Source of the DNA: Promethearchaeia archaeon
GTDB lineage: Archaea; Asgardarchaeota; Lokiarchaeia; Sigyniarchaeales; SOKP01
DNA: 64,000 bases
Assembly: GCA_029856145.1 (NCBI GenBank)
Contig: JAHQWK010000004.1
Location: 180,641 to 244,640, forward strand
Reading direction: 5' to 3'
A program made the position numbers and the translations under genes. Within the stretch, counting starts at the first letter, position 1. Each line of letters opens with the position of its first letter. The notes under the pieces were generated by a model that saw nothing but the letters and a program-made list of their open reading frames with translations, did no database searches and was not told where the DNA came from. Positions 22,380-36,017 of the stretch are shown here, piece by piece.

Positions 22380-23346
22380 ATGGGAGTCGGAAAAGGATAT
22401 GGAAAGACCATACTTTTTGGTGAAATTATTTTCCTATTTCAGGAATAAACACTATCATTTTGTTGTGTATGGTCTTCCAGCAATCGCATCAGCTTTAGGA
22501 TCCTCTACGACTGCTGAAGTTAAAGTAGTCAAGGGTAATGGTTGGACAGTTAATGATCAAAGACTTGCAACACCAGGTTACAAAAAGAAGAAATTCAATG
22601 AGGCAATACAATCAATTAAAAATGTAATTGAACATTTGAGAGTGGATACCGAGAATAAAAAACTTGAAATAAAATTTGCGGGGGATCTGATTGCCGCTAG
22701 CGGAGTAGGTGCTTCAGCTGCTCAATGTACATCACTTTCCCGAGCTTTAAATGACACGTTTAATCTCAAATTAACTGAAAAAAAGATAAATGAGGCAGCT
22801 TATGAAGGAGAGAAAGCCTATCATGGTACTCCTTCAGGTATTGATAACACAGCCTCTACTTATGGTGGTTTAATTTGGTTTGTTAAAAACTTGAGAGGGG
22901 GGGAAAATACGATGGAACTTCTACAGTCACCAAAGAAAATGCCCTTAGTAATAATAAATTCAGGAATAACAGCTTCTACAACAGAAGTAGTAGCTGATGT
23001 TCGACGTTTAAAAGAGGAATCTCCTTTAAAATTTGAAAAAATCTTTAATAATTATGAAAAATTAGCATTAGCAGCAAAAAAAGCCTTACTTGAAGGAAAT
23101 ATTAACACTGTTGGTGACCTAATGAATCAAAACCACAAATTACTACAAGATATAACGGTATCTGGAGAGATTAATGATAAATTAGTCGAAATCTCCTTAC
23201 GAAATGGGGCTAAAGGTGCTAAAATGACAGGAACAGGGCGAGGTGGTTTGGTCATAGCATTAGCTGAAAATGAAGAAATTCAAGATGAAATCGCCAAAAC
23301 TATTGAAAAAAAAGGATATAATGCCTGGAAAACCATGATTGGATGA
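22380..23346 (+). CDS. mvk: Mevalonate kinase split by a 31-nt intron; 311 aa spliced
   Basis: Exon 1 MGVGKGYGKTILFGE starts immediately after the upstream stop; exon 2 HFVVYG...GVGASAA, HGTPSGIDN, KMTGTGRGG. Confidence 0.93.
22425..22455 (+). other. Putative bulge-helix-bulge mRNA intron in mvk (31 nt)
   Basis: ATTATTTTCCTATTTCAGGAATAAACACTAT; central helix GGTG/CACT with 3-nt bulges; removal gives GGT GAA CAT TTT (GEHF). Confidence 0.9.
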
Positions 23347-25252
23347 GTGGGAGTTAAAATTGAAAAGTGATAATGAGATATTTCTATTAAAGTTAGGAGG
23401 TAGTTTATTAACTGATAAGAATAAACCTTTTTCTCTTAGAGAAGAGGTTTTAGAGAACTGTCTTAATCAAATTATTGAAAGTAAAAAATCAATTATTTTA
23501 ATTCATGGAGGCGGATCATTTGGGCATCCAATTGCTAAAAAATATCAAATTTCTGAAGGACTAAATGATACTGTCAAGGATCAAATAATTGGACTTTCAA
23601 AAACCCATGAGGTTATGAATAAATTTAATTCTATAATAATAAACAAATTATTAGATAAAGGATATCCCGCAATTTCGATTCAGCCTTCTAGTATTTTTGT
23701 AAAAGATTTTAATCAAATAAAAATAAATACAATAGAACCTATTGAAAAATTACTTGAACTTGGAATAATCCCGGTTTTATATGGTGATATTGTTTTAAGT
23801 TGGGATTCTTATTTTTCAATTCTTTCAGGAGATCAAATTATTTTAAAACTATGTGAAAAAATTCAAAATTTTAAGATTTCAAAAGTCATATTTGCAATTG
23901 AAAAGGATGGTATCTTCATAAAAGACAATGGAAACGAAAAACTGGCTTTAAAATTAAGTTCCAACGATTTAAATAATCTAAAATTGGCTGAATTAGATCA
24001 AAAAATAGATGTTACTGGGGGGATAAAAGGTAAACTAGAAACAATTAAAGAAATAATAAAATTTAATATCCCTGTTCAAATTGTTAATGGGCTTAAGAAT
24101 AAAAATATTCTAAAGGCATTACTTAATCAATCTATAGAATGTACTAATATTAAAGTGCCATCTGATAAAAGATTTGAAAATAAATTATATAATAGGAAGA
24201 TAGAACACATAGAAATCCCTTTAAAGTATAATGTGCAACATTCAAAGAACTATTTTGATGATATAAATCTACTTCATCATCCCCTACCGGAGTATGAATT
24301 AGAGGATATTGATCTTTCTGTTGATTTTTTTAAAAAAGAAATTTCAGCTCCTATATGTATTGCAGCAATTACAGGTGGCCATGAAATTTCTAAAGCAATT
24401 AATAATATCTTAGCAAATGCTGCAAGTTCAGAAAATATTATTATGAGTGTTGGATCTCAAAGAATAGGCTTGGAGGATCCTTCCACCATTGATTCATTTA
24501 AAGTTGTACGTGATGTTGCCCCTAATATTCCAATAATAGGAAATTTGGGAGTTGGACAGTTATGTGATCCTAATTTTAATTTAGATCATTTTAATAAATG
24601 CATTGAGATGATTAATGCTGATGTTATGGCTATACATTTGAACGCTTTACATGAACTTACTCAAAGTGATGGTAATCTTTCTTATAAAAATTTTGAAGAA
24701 ATATTTAAAGAAATAAGAAAAAATCTGAAAATTCCAATTATAGCTAAAGAAGTGGGATCAGGGTTTAATAAGGAATTAGCGTTAAAACTCGATTCATTAG
24801 GAATTGATGGATTTGACGTTGGAGGAATGGGGGGTACTAGTTTTGCTGCAATAGAGTCAATACGCGATGATTCTAGCTATGAAGTATATACTCGAAAGAT
24901 TGCAGACACTTTTCGAGAATGGGGCATTCCAACACCCGTAAGTATAATCAATGTTAGAAAAGCCACTAAAAAACTTATAATAGCAACAGGAGGCTTAAGA
25001 AATGGTCTAGATATAGCCAAAGCAATCTCAATTGGAGCAAATATCGGGGGATTTGCATTTAAGTTTTTAAAAACAGCATGGCAAGATTATAAAAATAATA
25101 CTTTGTCAAATACAATCAAGGAGATAAAAACGCTGAAACAAGAATTAAGATCCTCACTATGGTTAATGAATATAGATAATATTGATAAGCTAATAGGTAA
25201 TGACGATAAAAGGGTTTTATTGGGCAAATTATATCAATGGATAAATCAATGA
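23339..25252 (+). CDS. fni: Fusion of isopentenyl phosphate kinase and type 2 IPP isomerase
   Basis: KLGGSLLTDK, HGGGSFGH, DVTGG; then RKIEH, GSQR, HLN, KEVGSG, GGTS, WGIPT. Confidence 0.92.
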   Translation: MDEWELKLKSDNEIFLLKLGGSLLTDKNKPFSLREEVLENCLNQIIESKKSIILIHGGGSFGHPIAKKYQISEGLNDTVKDQIIGLSKTHEVMNKFNSIIINKLLDKGYPAISIQPSSIFVKDFNQIKINTIEPIEKLLELGIIPVLYGDIVLSWDSYFSILSGDQIILKLCEKIQNFKISKVIFAIEKDGIFIKDNGNEKLALKLSSNDLNNLKLAELDQKIDVTGGIKGKLETIKEIIKFNIPVQIVNGLKNKNILKALLNQSIECTNIKVPSDKRFENKLYNRKIEHIEIPLKYNVQHSKNYFDDINLLHHPLPEYELEDIDLSVDFFKKEISAPICIAAITGGHEISKAINNILANAASSENIIMSVGSQRIGLEDPSTIDSFKVVRDVAPNIPIIGNLGVGQLCDPNFNLDHFNKCIEMINADVMAIHLNALHELTQSDGNLSYKNFEEIFKEIRKNLKIPIIAKEVGSGFNKELALKLDSLGIDGFDVGGMGGTSFAAIESIRDDSSYEVYTRKIADTFREWGIPTPVSIINVRKATKKLIIATGGLRNGLDIAKAISIGANIGGFAFKFLKTAWQDYKNNTLSNTIKEIKTLKQELRSSLWLMNIDNIDKLIGNDDKRVLLGKLYQWINQ

Positions 25253-27951: not shown

Positions 27952-28869
27952 TCACCAAATTAATTCAAAAACAATTTTAAATGTAGCTATTATATGAGGT
28001 TGTAATGTAATTTCGAGCTTATTTTGTGCATAATTATTAACTTTTGCTTTAATATCATTTTTTGGTTTTTCTTCAAGAAAGTTTACAATTATAACATTTT
28101 TAATAGATATTTTCTCGTAAAATGTTAAAATCGCTTTTTGAGGAATAGAAGATATATTATAAAATCTTATAATAAGAGAATCTCCTTCTTCAGCTTGTTT
28201 TAATGCACTTAAAACGACACTTTTATTATCAATTTCAAGAAATCTAAAAATCGGTGGAAGGTAAGATTCAAATTGGTTCTTATTAGGTTTAAAAAGATAG
28301 GATAACACTCCAGTTGGCTTTAATACAACTTTATTTGACATTCTAAAGGGACTTTGAGCCATTGCTGGAAAGATTGGTTTAAGCGGATTGTTAAATTCCT
28401 TTCCTTTAAGGTGTACTTCTGAATCTAACCAGTTTGATTCTGATGAAGTAACTACTGCTAATTCAAATGAATATTTGCTGAGACATTGCGCACCTGGAGT
28501 ACTAAAACCTGGACCTGCATGAGACATTCTAGACGCAAAATCATCACGGGATAGCCACTCAATACATCGTAAAAGAGTTATTACAAATGTAATTGTATTA
28601 TCCTCATTTATTTTAGCTTCATATTCTGGCAAGCCCTTATTTAATACTGCAAAAGTGCTTGAATCATTACTAATGGAGACTTCTAAATTATCCTCTAAAG
28701 GAATGGTTTGGCCATCTAATACAAAATTACTATATTCAGGATCAGTTTTTAGAATATCCAATAATTTATCCATCATAATTACAAGCCTAGCTCGAAATTC
28801 TTGAAAAGTGAGATACCACTCTCTATCCCAATGAGTTTCTGGAACGATTATGATATTATTTGCTTTCAT
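27952..28869 (-). pseudogene. GH38 alpha-mannosidase with a large in-frame internal deletion
   Basis: THWDREWY..LDGQT..LED joined at about residue 64 to the C-terminal NKGLPEYE..TLLR..PGAQ and ALKQAE..IIRFYN domains. Confidence 0.75.
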
Positions 28870-30590: not shown

Positions 30591-31661
30591 GTGATAATGG
30601 AAACAACTCATAAGGTATATTTTAAAGATTCTTCTAATTTGTCTGAGGTTGAATCAGATTCCATAGATTTAATGATAACCTCACCCCCATATCCAATGAT
30701 TGAGATGTGGGATTCATTATTTTCTTCTTTAAATGGTGAGATTAAACAAACCCTTGAAGATAAGGATGGTAAGAGAGCATTTAATTTAATGCATCAAGAG
30801 CTAGATAAAGTGTGGATTGAAGTTACACGGGTGTTAAAAATAGGAGGAATAGCTTGTGTAAATATTGGAGATGCCACAAGAAAAATCGGTAAGACTTTTC
30901 AATTATTTCCTAATCATGTTAAAATAACTAATTTTTTCCAAGAAAATGATTTTATTGAATTACCGTGCATTTTATGGAGAAAACCAACAAATAGTCCAAA
31001 TAAATTCATGGGTTCCGGCATGCTCCCTCCAAATGCATATGTTACTCTTGAACATGAATATATTTTAATTTTTAGAAAAGGTTATATTAAACGAAAAATG
31101 CCACCGAAATCGGAAAATAGATATAATAGCGCTTTTTTCTGGGAAGAGAGGAACAAATGGTTTTCAGATGTGTGGGAGGACGTAAGAGGGATTTCTCAGA
31201 ATTTAAATGAAAACAATATTAATCAAAAGAATATAAGGAAACGATCAGCAGCTTTCCCTTTAGAAATCCCTTATCGCTTAATTAATATGTTTTCATTATA
31301 TGAAGATATGGTTTTAGACCCGTTCTGGGGAACAGGAACAACCTCATTAGCTGCCATGATCTCTGCAAGAAATTCAATTGGGTATGAAATCAATTCTAAA
31401 TTCATGGGATTGTTTAAAAAAAATATGGGTAAGCTTAGAAAATTAAATAATGAAATAAATAATAATAGATTACATCAACATCTTGAATTTATTAAGCATT
31501 ATAGGAATAAGGTTAAAGATATTAAATATAACTCAGCTCTCTATAAATTTCCAGTAATTACGAAACAGGAAATAGATGTTTTATTATATTGTATAAAAAA
31601 TTATAGTGAAGATGAGAATAAATTTATTCTAAACCATCAAAAATTTGAATTTGCACAATAA
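30591..31661 (+). CDS. DNA amino-methyltransferase, beta class (probably N4-cytosine)
   Basis: ITSPPY precedes LDPFWGTGTT. Confidence 0.9.
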   Translation: MIMETTHKVYFKDSSNLSEVESDSIDLMITSPPYPMIEMWDSLFSSLNGEIKQTLEDKDGKRAFNLMHQELDKVWIEVTRVLKIGGIACVNIGDATRKIGKTFQLFPNHVKITNFFQENDFIELPCILWRKPTNSPNKFMGSGMLPPNAYVTLEHEYILIFRKGYIKRKMPPKSENRYNSAFFWEERNKWFSDVWEDVRGISQNLNENNINQKNIRKRSAAFPLEIPYRLINMFSLYEDMVLDPFWGTGTTSLAAMISARNSIGYEINSKFMGLFKKNMGKLRKLNNEINNNRLHQHLEFIKHYRNKVKDIKYNSALYKFPVITKQEIDVLLYCIKNYSEDENKFILNHQKFEFAQ

Positions 31662-31676
31662 ATAGATAAATTGTTT

Positions 31677-31755
31677 AAATCCTTCCTCGAGCAGAGCATT
31701 CATCAAATAACTTTCCTTAAAAGGGTTTTTTTATTTGAGTCATTATTTTGGATTT
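31677..31755 (-). promoter_or_regulatory. Putative eukaryote-like SECIS element in the 3' UTR
   Basis: AUGAC-UCAAAUAA-AAAAA-CCCUUUUAAGG-AAAG-UUAUUUGA-UGAA: GA/GA quartet, 8-bp helix II, apical As with mini-stem, basal AAAUCC/GGAUUU. Confidence 0.75.
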
Positions 31756-31758
31756 TTT

Positions 31759-32682
31759 TTATTCACAATCTTCTTCGGCTTGCTGGAGATTAATCTTTAT
31801 AAAACCTGCTTCCTGAAGATTCCTTTGTTCAGATTTCACTGATCTATTTACCTGATGTAAATGTTTCATAGCATTTTTTTTTCCTTCTTTGATATTTTCA
31901 ATTAGTTCTTCTTTGCTAAAACCACCAGAAATAACAAGAGCTGTTTGAAAAGAATGATCAGGTTCTAAAGTCATAAATTCAATTTGCATAGCAGATAATA
32001 TTTCTCCTTGTCCTTTATATATAGTATTTGAAAGGTTCATAGTCTTTCTATCGATTTTGAAATCTTTTGTTAGACATGACTCGTAGTTTGTTGATTTTGA
32101 TAGAGGAGAAAACCCACCATATAAACCCGTATTATCATATTGGTAAATAACGTCACTTTCTTCATCATAGTCGGATAGATCATTATCATAACCCATAAGT
32201 CCATTTATATCAAAATCAAAAACAAAATACATTGAAAAATCTTTCAATGCAAAATCTGAAATGTTTTTAATCGTGAAAAAAGTACTAATGTAGGGTATGT
32301 GAGGTGGATTGAAAATGTCTTTGTACACACGAACGAATTGTTTTTTTTCTATTGGGATCGATTTCAAATTTTGTTCTTGAGACAATTTCTTAAAATACTC
32401 TGTAATATTAAAATCTAAAGTAATTCTACTTATAGCAGTCCCCGTACGAGTATTTACCATATTGTATATCGGTGTTGGCTCGATATTTTTGAGAATCACT
32501 GGAATTGTTCCAATTTCTTTCCCTTCTAGTGTAAAGCTAAACCAAGGACCAGTTAATTCTTGTTCACTAAGATATACAAGATACTTTCCTTTGTATGTCA
32601 GTTCTTTAATTGAAAATCCCATTACATAGCCTTGAGCGTTTCAAGTTGCAACTACATCATGCCAAATAATTTTAAGTACTAT
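31759..32682 (-). CDS. Probable selenoprotein of unknown function (Sec14; beta-sandwich-like domain); 307 aa
   Basis: AAGGAGGT, 8-nt spacer, ATA start; MVLKIIWHDVVAT-TGA-NAQGYV in frame with the 287-aa ORF; SECIS-like hairpin after the stop. Confidence 0.7.
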
Positions 32683-32788
32683 TTTTTTTAACCTCCTTCA
32701 AATTATTTTAAATTATTATATTTTATATAGATAGTTTATCAATTATTAAAAAAAATAAGAATTCATAAAAAAGTTTGTAATGAATGTA

Positions 32789-33772
32789 TTAAAGGTTTTC
32801 TACAACTCTATACGCAATATATAAGAAAGCATCATTAACATTCTCACCCGTTAAAGCTGATGTAAGAATATAATGAAAACCAAATTCGTTAGCAACCTCC
32901 TTTATCTCTTCTTCACTTATTACAATTTCATCCACTAGATCTGATTTGTTTCCCACAATTACTACAGGGATCGTTCTTTTAAGTGTTTTTTGAATCTCAT
33001 TATACCATTTTTCAATACTTTTTAGATTATTTGGACGAGTTCTATCTACAACTATGAATGCGGCATTAGCTCCGTTATAGAATCTTGCTCTATTCAAGTC
33101 AAATTGACTTTGGCCTCCAATATCCCATATAATAAAATTCAATTTTGTCTTTTCGCTTAAAATTACCGTTTTTTTGCTTAATTGGACTCCGATTGTACTA
33201 ATATAGTCTTTCTCGAATCTATTTTTGATAAATCGTCTAATTAATGATGTTTTACCAACCTGATAATCTCCCGTTAATATTAATTTATTTGAATATTCTC
33301 CTGCTAAATTTGGAAGTTGACCTCCTCGAGTTTTTGACAATGCTTTTATAATCTCAGGTATCTTTGGTGATACAAATTGATTTCCAAGTAAAATAAGTTC
33401 AATTTTAGAAGCTATATGTTCAGAATAAACCTTTAATTCAATATCCGCTGTGGATTGATCTGCTACTGTTGATAAAATTGAATTTGGCCCCATTGAACTA
33501 AAAATAAACTTCTTATCCCCTGTCTCTGTGATATTAAAGAAACTATCTGTTGTTCCAAACTCGGCTTTAATTCTATCTATGTAAGCCTGATCTAGCGTGG
33601 CTGATAATGCTCCAATTATTGCATCTGATTCCTCCTTATTTTCTTGCTTAGACTCTGAAGCGATAATAAATCCGTTTCTATCACATATAGCCACTCCTAA
33701 AATACCTTCCACTTCATTAAAATAATTTTTTAAAATTTCTTTTAACAGATTAGTACTTTGAAGCCGTTCCAT
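32789..33772 (-). CDS. Roadblock/LC7 domain fused to a Rab-like GTPase
   Basis: GILGVAICDRNGFIIAS; GDYQVGKTS, TIG, WDIGGQ, GNKSD, TSA. Confidence 0.9.
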   Translation of the reverse strand: MERLQSTNLLKEILKNYFNEVEGILGVAICDRNGFIIASESKQENKEESDAIIGALSATLDQAYIDRIKAEFGTTDSFFNITETGDKKFIFSSMGPNSILSTVADQSTADIELKVYSEHIASKIELILLGNQFVSPKIPEIIKALSKTRGGQLPNLAGEYSNKLILTGDYQVGKTSLIRRFIKNRFEKDYISTIGVQLSKKTVILSEKTKLNFIIWDIGGQSQFDLNRARFYNGANAAFIVVDRTRPNNLKSIEKWYNEIQKTLKRTIPVVIVGNKSDLVDEIVISEEEIKEVANEFGFHYILTSALTGENVNDAFLYIAYRVVENL

Positions 33773-34103: not shown

Positions 34104-36017
34104 TTAATTATTAAGAGTTTTCAAATAATTCAGGATGTATTTTCGGTTATTATCAGTAATCTCATATAAATTAAAAACTAATAAATCGATGGTTTCTTGG
34201 AGATGTTCCAATTCATCAAAGTTTTCTAAAATGAGTTTAACATTTTCTATTATTTTTTTAGCATTCTCTTTTTCTTTATTAGAAATAGGAACTTTAATCG
34301 GAAAATCTTCTATTTTTTCTATTAAAATTCTTGGAAATAATTTTTTATAAGTTCCAAAGGATTTAATGAAGAAATATGAGAAAAGCATTGAATTTAAAAG
34401 CCCTAATAAATAAAAATTATTAAATTCAGAAATAGGGGATTGTTTGATTCTTAAATTATAAAAAGATTGAGAAGTTAGTGATAAATTCTTATCATATGTA
34501 GCACAAATTTTACTATTTTGGCTTAATTGTCTTATTATTATGCGATCTTCATAAAGGCTAAACTCTTTATAATTTATTCCGACTTTAGAAGTATCAATAT
34601 ATTTGTATTGAGTTATCTGATAACGGATTATAGAATATAGAAATAATTGAAAATTATCTTTTGTCGCATTTGAAGGAATTGCTTCATAAACTATGTTTTC
34701 ACTATTCTTTTCATTTAGAGGTGAGTTACATATATGACATTTTAATTTCTTTTGAGGAATTGGCAAATATTTATTACATATTTTACAAAATATTATCTTT
34801 CCTTTTTTAGTTAGCTCAACTCCCCTACCTAATACTAGTTTAATATTATATTTCTTTGATAAATCCTTTAATTTCAGAAATTTTGTGCTTAATTGCTCAA
34901 GAATTAATATATCAATTTCATTTAAATGGATTAAAAATTTATAATTCCACTTTTCTATAATATTTTGGGGGATAGATTCTTCGTGTTGATTTAACACTTT
35001 TAATTTGATATAGTTACTTTTTCTTTCTGATATATCATCTTCCTTTTCTAAAATTATAATAATATTTGAAACAACAGGATCACTGAATTTTGGGCCTGTA
35101 TGATAAATTTCTTTAATTTTTGTAGAATTATATATATATTTCCTAAGAATTGACCGATTTGAAAGAGCTAAAAGTGAATCTGGGACGATATAACCTAACA
35201 TGCCCCCTTTTTTCAAAATCTTTATTCCAAGTTCCATAAATATCTGATAATAATCGTATTGACCATCATTAGTTTCAAAATTAGATGTTTCAATAATTTG
35301 CCTTTGATCTAAGGGAATATCTCTTATAAATAAATAGGGAGGGTTTCCTACTACATAATCATACTTTTTTTCACTGTCAATCATTAATGTGTTAAAATTT
35401 TTTATATTGAACCATGGTAGATGATAGTTTGGCTCAAAAGATAAAATCAAATTTAATAATTCGAATAAAGTGAAATGAATATTAATCTGACATAAAATAC
35501 AAGCAATTGGATTAATATCTATGCCAAAAATACTCTTTTTAACTATTGAAATTATACCTTTAGCTTCTTCAACTGTTAATTCAGAAATTATTTCTCGTTT
35601 ATAAATTCTAAGACATCTTTCAATCAAAATTCTAATTGCCTGGATGATAAAACTTCCAGAACCACAGCTAATATCAATTAATTTTTTTGTTTCAATCTGC
35701 TTAAGGTAATTATAATCTACAGCATCTAAGATATATTTAACTACAGGAGAGGGAGTATAAAATTCACCAAGTTTTTTTTTCTCTTTATGATTTCGCGTCT
35801 TTTCATATATCTTACTAAACACATCAAAAGTAATATCATATAAATCAAAGGAGATACTATCTTTTATGGTATTTTCGGCATTATTAAATGAACCAAGACT
35901 TTCAATTATTCTATTTAGGAAAACATCGCCATTATGATTATTCAAGCTAACTTTATGAAATTGTTTTAAATTTCCAATAACATTTTCCTTTTCCAGATAA
36001 TCAATAAAATCTTGCAT
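34104..36017 (-). CDS. N6-adenine DNA methyltransferase, gamma class (Eco57I/TaqI-like), with a Cys4 insert
   Basis: GEFYTP, DISCGSGSF, VGNPPY; CKIC..CHIC; YLLGLLNS. Confidence 0.88.
   Translation of the reverse strand: MQDFIDYLEKENVIGNLKQFHKVSLNNHNGDVFLNRIIESLGSFNNAENTIKDSISFDLYDITFDVFSKIYEKTRNHKEKKKLGEFYTPSPVVKYILDAVDYNYLKQIETKKLIDISCGSGSFIIQAIRILIERCLRIYKREIISELTVEEAKGIISIVKKSIFGIDINPIACILCQINIHFTLFELLNLILSFEPNYHLPWFNIKNFNTLMIDSEKKYDYVVGNPPYLFIRDIPLDQRQIIETSNFETNDGQYDYYQIFMELGIKILKKGGMLGYIVPDSLLALSNRSILRKYIYNSTKIKEIYHTGPKFSDPVVSNIIIILEKEDDISERKSNYIKLKVLNQHEESIPQNIIEKWNYKFLIHLNEIDILILEQLSTKFLKLKDLSKKYNIKLVLGRGVELTKKGKIIFCKICNKYLPIPQKKLKCHICNSPLNEKNSENIVYEAIPSNATKDNFQLFLYSIIRYQITQYKYIDTSKVGINYKEFSLYEDRIIIRQLSQNSKICATYDKNLSLTSQSFYNLRIKQSPISEFNNFYLLGLLNSMLFSYFFIKSFGTYKKLFPRILIEKIEDFPIKVPISNKEKENAKKIIENVKLILENFDELEHLQETIDLLVFNLYEITDNNRKYILNYLKTLNN

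Follow-up and report, generated by a model that had tools for sequence, protein, structure and literature searches.

Does the DNA upstream of a 287-residue hypothetical protein of an Asgard archaeon hide the start of a selenoprotein? We examined this in a window of 64,000 nucleotides (the whole stretch analyzed) from a Promethearchaeia archaeon (assembly GCA_029856145.1, contig JAHQWK010000004.1, positions 180,641 to 244,640). A preliminary description, made from the sequence alone, had proposed a new selenoprotein with a eukaryote-like 3' untranslated region (3' UTR) SECIS. It pointed to a perfect Shine-Dalgarno (SD) sequence, an in-frame TGA and a hairpin just after the stop codon, with the caveat that the start codon would be ATA. 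Every feature it reported was found at its place, and our analysis supports its interpretation. We infer, with high confidence, that the gene starts 20 codons earlier than annotated and reads an internal UGA as selenocysteine (Sec), although no protein-level evidence exists.

The 307-codon frame and its UGA

The gene lies on the minus strand, as do all features of the locus given below. The SD sequence AAGGAGGT is at 32698-32691 and is followed by eight bases and then ATA at 32682-32680. From there, the frame IVLKIIWHDVVAT-TGA(32643-32641)-NAQGYV runs into the 287-aa open reading frame (ORF) (ATG 32622, TAA 31761-31759), which ends EEDCE. The full coding sequence (31759-32682) comprises 307 codons plus TAA and is broken only by the TGA at codon 14. 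Standard ORF calling gives only the part from ATG 32622, and databases likewise annotate only 31759-32622. All 120 listed database homologs, hypothetical proteins of Lokiarchaeia/Promethearchaeota, are 281 to 287 aa long and cover 92 to 93% of the query.

We next asked whether the TGA is conserved. In the genus of the window, 30 of 34 matching genomes had one TGA inside the match, and the other four carry an intron at that spot. Across the phylum, TGA holds codon 14 in 85 of 85 genomes examined from three families: 66 of 66 of the window's own Lokiarchaeia family (f1), 16 of 16 Thorarchaeia-type genomes (f12), and 3 of 3 of family f21. Four more Lokiarchaeia of families f3 and f4 read CxxU, as do the Thorarchaeia. 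Since related genomes are not independent, these counts describe conservation and are not a statistical test. Ten orthologs of family f2, among them "Ca. Lokiarchaeum ossiferum" NEF87_004727, read CxxC, and Sec14 aligns with the second Cys; 37 database proteins have Cys at the aligned position. Trp at this position, or the absence of a conserved peptide upstream, had been named in advance as an observation that would overturn the selenoprotein reading. Homologs had TGA or Cys and never Trp, and they kept the upstream peptide.

The 20-codon N-terminal extension (32623-32682) is not annotated but changes as coding sequence does. Codons 2 to 13 differ at rates of 0.32, 0.11 and 0.59 by codon position, and codons 2 to 13 and 15 to 20 show third-position bias without in-frame stops. 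None of 49 genomes has a stop in frame, against 42 and 39 in the other two frames. Assembled RNA contigs from two studies run from the body through the TGA to 32695-32698, which is compatible with transcription of the extension, although DNA carry-over is not excluded; incorporation of selenium was not measured. The start codon is ATA in 46 of 49 genomes and ATT, ATC or TTG in the others. The distance from the end of GGAGG to the start codon is 9 nt here and 8 to 13 nt in the family, while GGAGG-to-ATG spacing in this genome is mostly 7 to 11 nt. Because 40 of 49 genomes have an in-frame stop within 12 codons upstream, an Ile codon inside a longer frame is excluded, and an AUA start is the simplest reading. 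Some genera use ATG or GTG at or near this position, and most Thorarchaeia use ATG about 25 codons before the Sec. The downstream ATG has no SD sequence.

The absence of Sec machinery had also been set out as a refuting condition. The genome (3.55 Mb, 97% complete) has tRNA-Sec(UCA) next to SepSecS on one contig, with a SelB/EFSec homolog 4 kb away, as well as a PSTK homolog; the SelB and PSTK hits are below the curated cut-offs. It also has two selD genes with one TGA each, four vhuD genes with two TGA each, and two prx-like genes with one TGA. ARAGORN found only 11 tRNA genes in this genome, consistent with the heavily intron-interrupted tRNAs reported for Asgard archaea (10.64898/2026.10.13.758758).

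Seven related alleles, but not that of this genome, carry a 28- to 32-nt insert one base after the UGA (equivalent to 32640/32639). Five come from 54 genomes of the genus and two from metagenome contigs (loci L002, L025, L026, L030, L064, L076 and L154); a metagenome scan for the pattern was otherwise mostly noise, with two true loci among those returned. The insert folds as a bulge-helix-bulge motif, with 3-nt bulges around a 4-bp central helix that includes the UG of the Sec codon (97.1% paired). Cutting after the second base of each bulge restores Sec-Asn and a frame of 305 to 307 aa in all seven, including L026, where removal at the naive boundary would give Tyr. Splicing is not shown; the RNA data were contigs only, and these cannot be assigned to intron-bearing strains. 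The alleles fall in four places on the gene tree, one beside the window's own intronless allele, and two EndA genes are present in this genome and in four carriers. In WHD-type alleles, the coding RNA around the UGA (32610-32662) can also form a hairpin with the UGA in its loop (codons for WHDV pair with GYVM), and the same helix is the exon helix of the intron motif. The literature consulted names only cbf5 among archaeal coding sequences with such introns, the cbf5 pre-mRNA intron of Crenarchaeota (Watanabe 2002 and Yokobori 2009, as cited in PMC7714728). The predicted introns share its bulges, central helix and frame-restoring cut but sit one base after a Sec codon that forms part of the central helix, and their exon-side helix is relaxed.

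The hairpin behind the stop codon

The element at 31677-31755 has the parts of a type II eukaryote-like SECIS. AUGA is at 31743-31740, followed by an 8-bp Watson-Crick upper helix (31738-31731 with 31710-31703), an A-run (31730-31726), a mini-stem of 2 to 3 bp, and GA at 31701-31700. We also identified a lower helix (31754-31750 with 31682-31678) and a small extra hairpin in the 3' internal loop (31696-31686), neither of which was in the preliminary description. The element fits the published criteria (GA_GA core, upper stem of 7 to 15 bp, mini-stem of 2 to 8 bp, unpaired adenines, and a position within 600 nt of the stop; PMC11227280). Bacterial promoter and terminator scans were uninformative and showed no terminator on the coding strand at the hairpin.

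It had been stated beforehand that conservation of the hairpin merely as a terminator, without the GA quartet, would speak against the proposal. We found the AUGA/GA quartet conserved. Over 31 genus sequences, 96.4% of cells pair and four pairs change on both sides, while slid controls fall to 23 to 50%. Further compensatory swaps occur in the upper helix across the family (loci L284 to L286, L298 and L300). Folding energy alone is unremarkable (z -1.4). A loose SECIS descriptor matched behind only 22 of 2,999 ORFs of this genome (antisense control, 23), a chance rate of 0.7% behind any ORF; a first genome-wide descriptor was too loose and missed most known SECIS elements (75 hits against 48 to 53 in shuffles). 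The descriptor found the element behind 45 of 45 f1 loci, behind 13 of 16 Thorarchaeia loci (there with AUGA overlapping the stop) and, in f21, just inside the coding end, but behind none of 10 Cys orthologs.

We then compared the hairpin with other SECIS elements. The selD elements of this genome and genus have the same layout, including the extra 3' hairpin. A covariance model trained on 28 selD elements alone scored the hairpin at only 13.2 bits (E = 2, rank 6 in the window), and an Rfam scan gave no SECIS match; the selD model is dominated by selD-specific sequence, and the hairpin was not scored with the published lokiSECIS model, so that this comparison does not settle the matter either way. 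The CxxU or xxxU homologs of f3/f4 (L031, L038, L041, L229 and L218) show no canonical SECIS core near their stop, and most keep only a short hairpin resembling the extra one. The extra hairpin, usually with GC in its loop, follows the 3' GA of the quartet in the selD, vhuD and prx 3' UTRs of this genome and in Thorarchaeia loci L265 to L280, and it covaries in this family. It is not described in the sections of Huang 2024 (PMC11227280) that we consulted.

Distribution, predicted fold and proposed activity

In 251 genomes drawn across the phylum, stand-alone members occur in f1 (50/54), f2 (3/5), f12 (46/59) and f21 (5/5), all SepSecS-positive families. They were not found in the SepSecS-negative families searched (f10, 0/26; f17, 0/19; f19, 0/10; f27, 0/16; and others) or in SepSecS-positive f5, f13, f18 and f24, where f24 has only weak hits to long surface proteins. 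A quick protein tree needs two changes between Sec and Cys. With the midpoint root between Thorarchaeia plus f21 and Lokiarchaeia, Sec is ancestral and Cys derived twice, but the root is not inferred and long branches meet. The gene neighborhood differs between lineages. In f1 and f2, the gene follows a co-directional roadblock plus small-GTPase gene (32789-33772 in the window; Pfam Ras, E = 1.7e-40). In f21, it lies within about 600 nt of SepSecS in all five genomes, with a GcvH gene between them where we looked; in L261, L262 and L227 it sits between a radical SAM gene and GcvH, convergent with SepSecS. Thorarchaeia homologs (L225:982-2217, L222 and L224) are divergent from a 411- to 413-aa gene (weak VPS28 match in L225, E = 2.5e-4) and a D-aminoacyl-tRNA deacylase gene.

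Homologs in L043, L218 and L044 lie near hypD on the opposite strand. We rejected an apparent vWA fusion, as it spans runs of N in L043, and L218 shows two overlapping genes, the homolog overlapping a downstream vWA gene by ATGA. A beta-class SPPY methyltransferase (30591-31661) and a gamma-class NPPY methyltransferase (34104-36017) flank the selenoprotein and GTPase genes, with no nuclease seen among the ORFs nearby. The idea that our gene is their endonuclease was rejected because no nuclease is among the fold matches and the methyltransferase neighbor is not kept across lineages. Elsewhere in the window, a 305-aa ORF (27952-28869) resembles the N- and C-terminal ends of a GH38-type alpha-mannosidase joined without the middle, possibly an internal deletion or assembly collapse, and a 637-aa ORF (23339-25252) reads as an isopentenyl phosphate kinase fused to a type 2 IPP isomerase; neither resemblance was tested.

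To obtain a fold, we modeled an unaltered Cys ortholog (pLDDT 85.8); the read-through protein of the window itself was not folded. The model is a beta-supersandwich followed by a long helix. The CxxC motif lies in a beta-hairpin loop of the all-beta sandwich rather than at the start of a helix in a thioredoxin fold, and the listed top 50 structural matches are nearly all supersandwich proteins. The preliminary description considered a pair between Sec14 and the C-terminal Cys conceivable. This is supported only by conservation: position 14 and Cys306 (31765-31767) are invariant in the alignment with the f2 orthologs, but residues 12 to 17 and 311 to 316 of the model have pLDDT under 50, so that proximity of the two was not tested. 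Cys306 is present in all 66 f1 genomes and absent in the CxxU forms of Thorarchaeia and f21. Of the 85 Sec forms, 84 keep a partner Cys: 62 f1 genomes have xxxU plus the C-terminal Cys, 18 Thorarchaeia/f21 genomes have CxxU without it, four have both, and one Thorarchaeia form (L276) has neither.

Taken together, we believe that the gene encodes a 307-residue selenoprotein. The frame, the UGA, the SECIS, the machinery and the Cys orthologs are seen directly in sequence, while initiation at AUA 32682 and decoding of UGA14 by tRNA-Sec and SelB/EFSec under control of the 3' UTR SECIS, as for the genome's selD, vhuD and prx-like genes, are inferred with high confidence. In this view, the product would be a stand-alone beta-supersandwich with Sec on an N-terminal hairpin loop and a C-terminal helical arm ending in Cys, a fold predicted on a Cys ortholog. 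With only about even confidence, we propose a redox role: the exposed selenol would attack a disulfide, peroxide or selenium/sulfur-bearing substrate and be resolved by a cysteine, three residues upstream in CxxU forms or at the C terminus in this lineage, while the sandwich would bind the partner or substrate. The either-or pattern of cysteines is what a catalytic selenol with an interchangeable resolving thiol gives, by analogy with peroxiredoxins and methionine sulfoxide reductases. No substrate is identified; restriction to Sec-using lineages and the SepSecS neighborhood in f21 hint at selenium handling but do not show it. The weak AUA start and UGA recoding would keep the protein scarce and selenium dependent.

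Other readings survive less well. Sec14 could be a metal ligand in a zinc-knuckle-like half site completed by the C-terminal Cys or a second subunit, serving as structural metal site, metal sensor or metal/selenium carrier. Cys orthologs read C-x-x-C-x-x-x-G like a rubredoxin knuckle, the loop is unresolved in a metal-free model, and VhuD and VhuU use Sec as a metal ligand. However, 62 of 66 f1 genomes have lost the first Cys and Thorarchaeia have lost the C-terminal one, so no fixed set of three or four ligands is conserved. Either-or retention fits a two-residue redox pair better, and we consider the metal-ligand role possible but unlikely. Less likely still, the protein could be a redox-sensitive effector or regulator of the upstream roadblock-GTPase. 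That gene lies upstream in all f1 and f2 loci where it was checked (20 aligned), but the neighbor differs in Thorarchaeia, f21 and f4, so the link is not family-wide; a complex prediction of a Cys ortholog with its upstream GTPase returned no verdict. It is very unlikely that UGA14 is a true stop after a 13-codon leader, with the protein starting at ATG 32622 and the SECIS only tuning read-through as a selenium sensor. AUA is a poor start codon, Met21 is common in f1 and gene callers start there, but the leader aligns residue for residue with the N-terminal strand of uninterrupted Cys orthologs, which is part of the predicted sheet (residues 3 to 8), and Met21 is absent in genus g19 (Phe), in Thorarchaeia and in f21. 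UGA read as Trp through a change of genetic code, a sequencing error or a pseudogene mark is contradicted by a TGA shared by 85 independent genomes, by Cys rather than Trp at the aligned position, by TGA ending this same gene in several genomes, and by separate tRNA-Trp(CCA) and tRNA-Sec(UCA) genes, and nothing was found in its favor.

A further reading is tentative and somewhat less likely than not. This may be an ancestral, Asgard-restricted family and the first selenoprotein with a beta-supersandwich fold, present as a Sec form in the common ancestor of Loki- and Thorarchaeia. It would have reverted to Cys twice (including in the lineage of the cultured Lokiarchaeia) and swapped its resolving cysteine between CxxU and the C terminus. 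It would serve selenium handling or redox control and be throttled by an AUA start, UGA recoding and, in some strains, an intron whose splice helix contains the Sec codon.

Comparison with known selenoproteins and folds

The mechanism, SECIS-dependent Sec insertion, is known; here it is inferred to act on an unlisted, widespread Asgard family with a predicted fold not in the prokaryotic selenoprotein list and a conserved non-AUG start. The 2024 survey lists seven Asgard families from a search with known families only (PMC11227280), and Mariotti 2016 (PMC4989117) also ran a SECIS-first search and reported no further family. The 2026 review (PMC13188914) lists 11 archaeal and 119 prokaryotic families, none matching by domain or description, and a literature search, which was not exhaustive, returned no paper on this family. 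Found in most sampled genomes of f1 and Thorarchaeia, the family is about as widespread as the known ones, yet every listed database record is truncated. It gives independent SECIS examples for the question of how eukaryote-like Sec decoding works without SBP2, and it shows a conserved AUA start, inferred as above, in archaea. As a Cys ortholog exists in a cultured organism, the function is open to direct test.

The closest systems are the Lokiarchaeota selenoprotein genes with lokiSECIS or type II eSECIS-like elements (SelD/SPS, VhuU, HdrA-VhuD and PrxL; PMC4989117, PMC11227280). These share the in-frame UGA and, in the 3' UTR right behind the stop, the AUGA/GA quartet, 8-bp upper helix, apical adenines and mini-stem. 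The preliminary description had inferred that the body does not resemble SelD, HdrA, Vhu, Fdh or Prx-like selenoproteins and may be a new family. Pfam and NCBIfam searches gave no match, and neither sequence nor predicted fold relates the protein to the known Asgard families (SelD, FrhA/VhuU, HdrA, FrhD/VhuD, Prx-like, AhpF-N and DsbA-like). The AUA start in most of f1 is a further difference.

By fold, the model resembles the N-terminal beta-supersandwich domains of GH94 phosphorylases, GH15 glucodextranase/glucoamylase, GH116 and GH149, and the galactose mutarotase-like fold (PDB 8rf9, 8bou, 6ggy, 1ulv and 3mwx). Z was 20.2 with an rmsd of 2.7 Å over 232 residues to 8rf9, 18.5 to 1ulv and 12.8 to 3mwx, and the Foldseek E value was about 1e-7. 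A shared fold shows no function, and identity is only 5 to 14%. For a mutarotase or aldose epimerase, which has catalytic His and Glu in the sugar site, no His or Glu is invariant in the alignment, but without a residue-level superposition this leaves the point undecided. The protein ends after the sandwich and its helical arm, without the (alpha/alpha)6 catalytic barrel, and carries Sec/Cys at both ends. Its nearest sequence relatives outside the family, from a wide profile search with Cys orthologs and database records, are uncharacterized domains in long surface or secreted proteins.

Finally, the CxxU redox selenoproteins (SELENOW/Rdx-like, GrdA and AhpD-like; PMC13188914, Table 1) share the CxxU motif with the Thorarchaeia, f21, f3, f4 and g19 members and have Cys homologs with CxxC. 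Here, the predicted fold is a beta-supersandwich and is not thioredoxin-like, and the window's lineage has lost the first Cys and keeps a C-terminal Cys instead.
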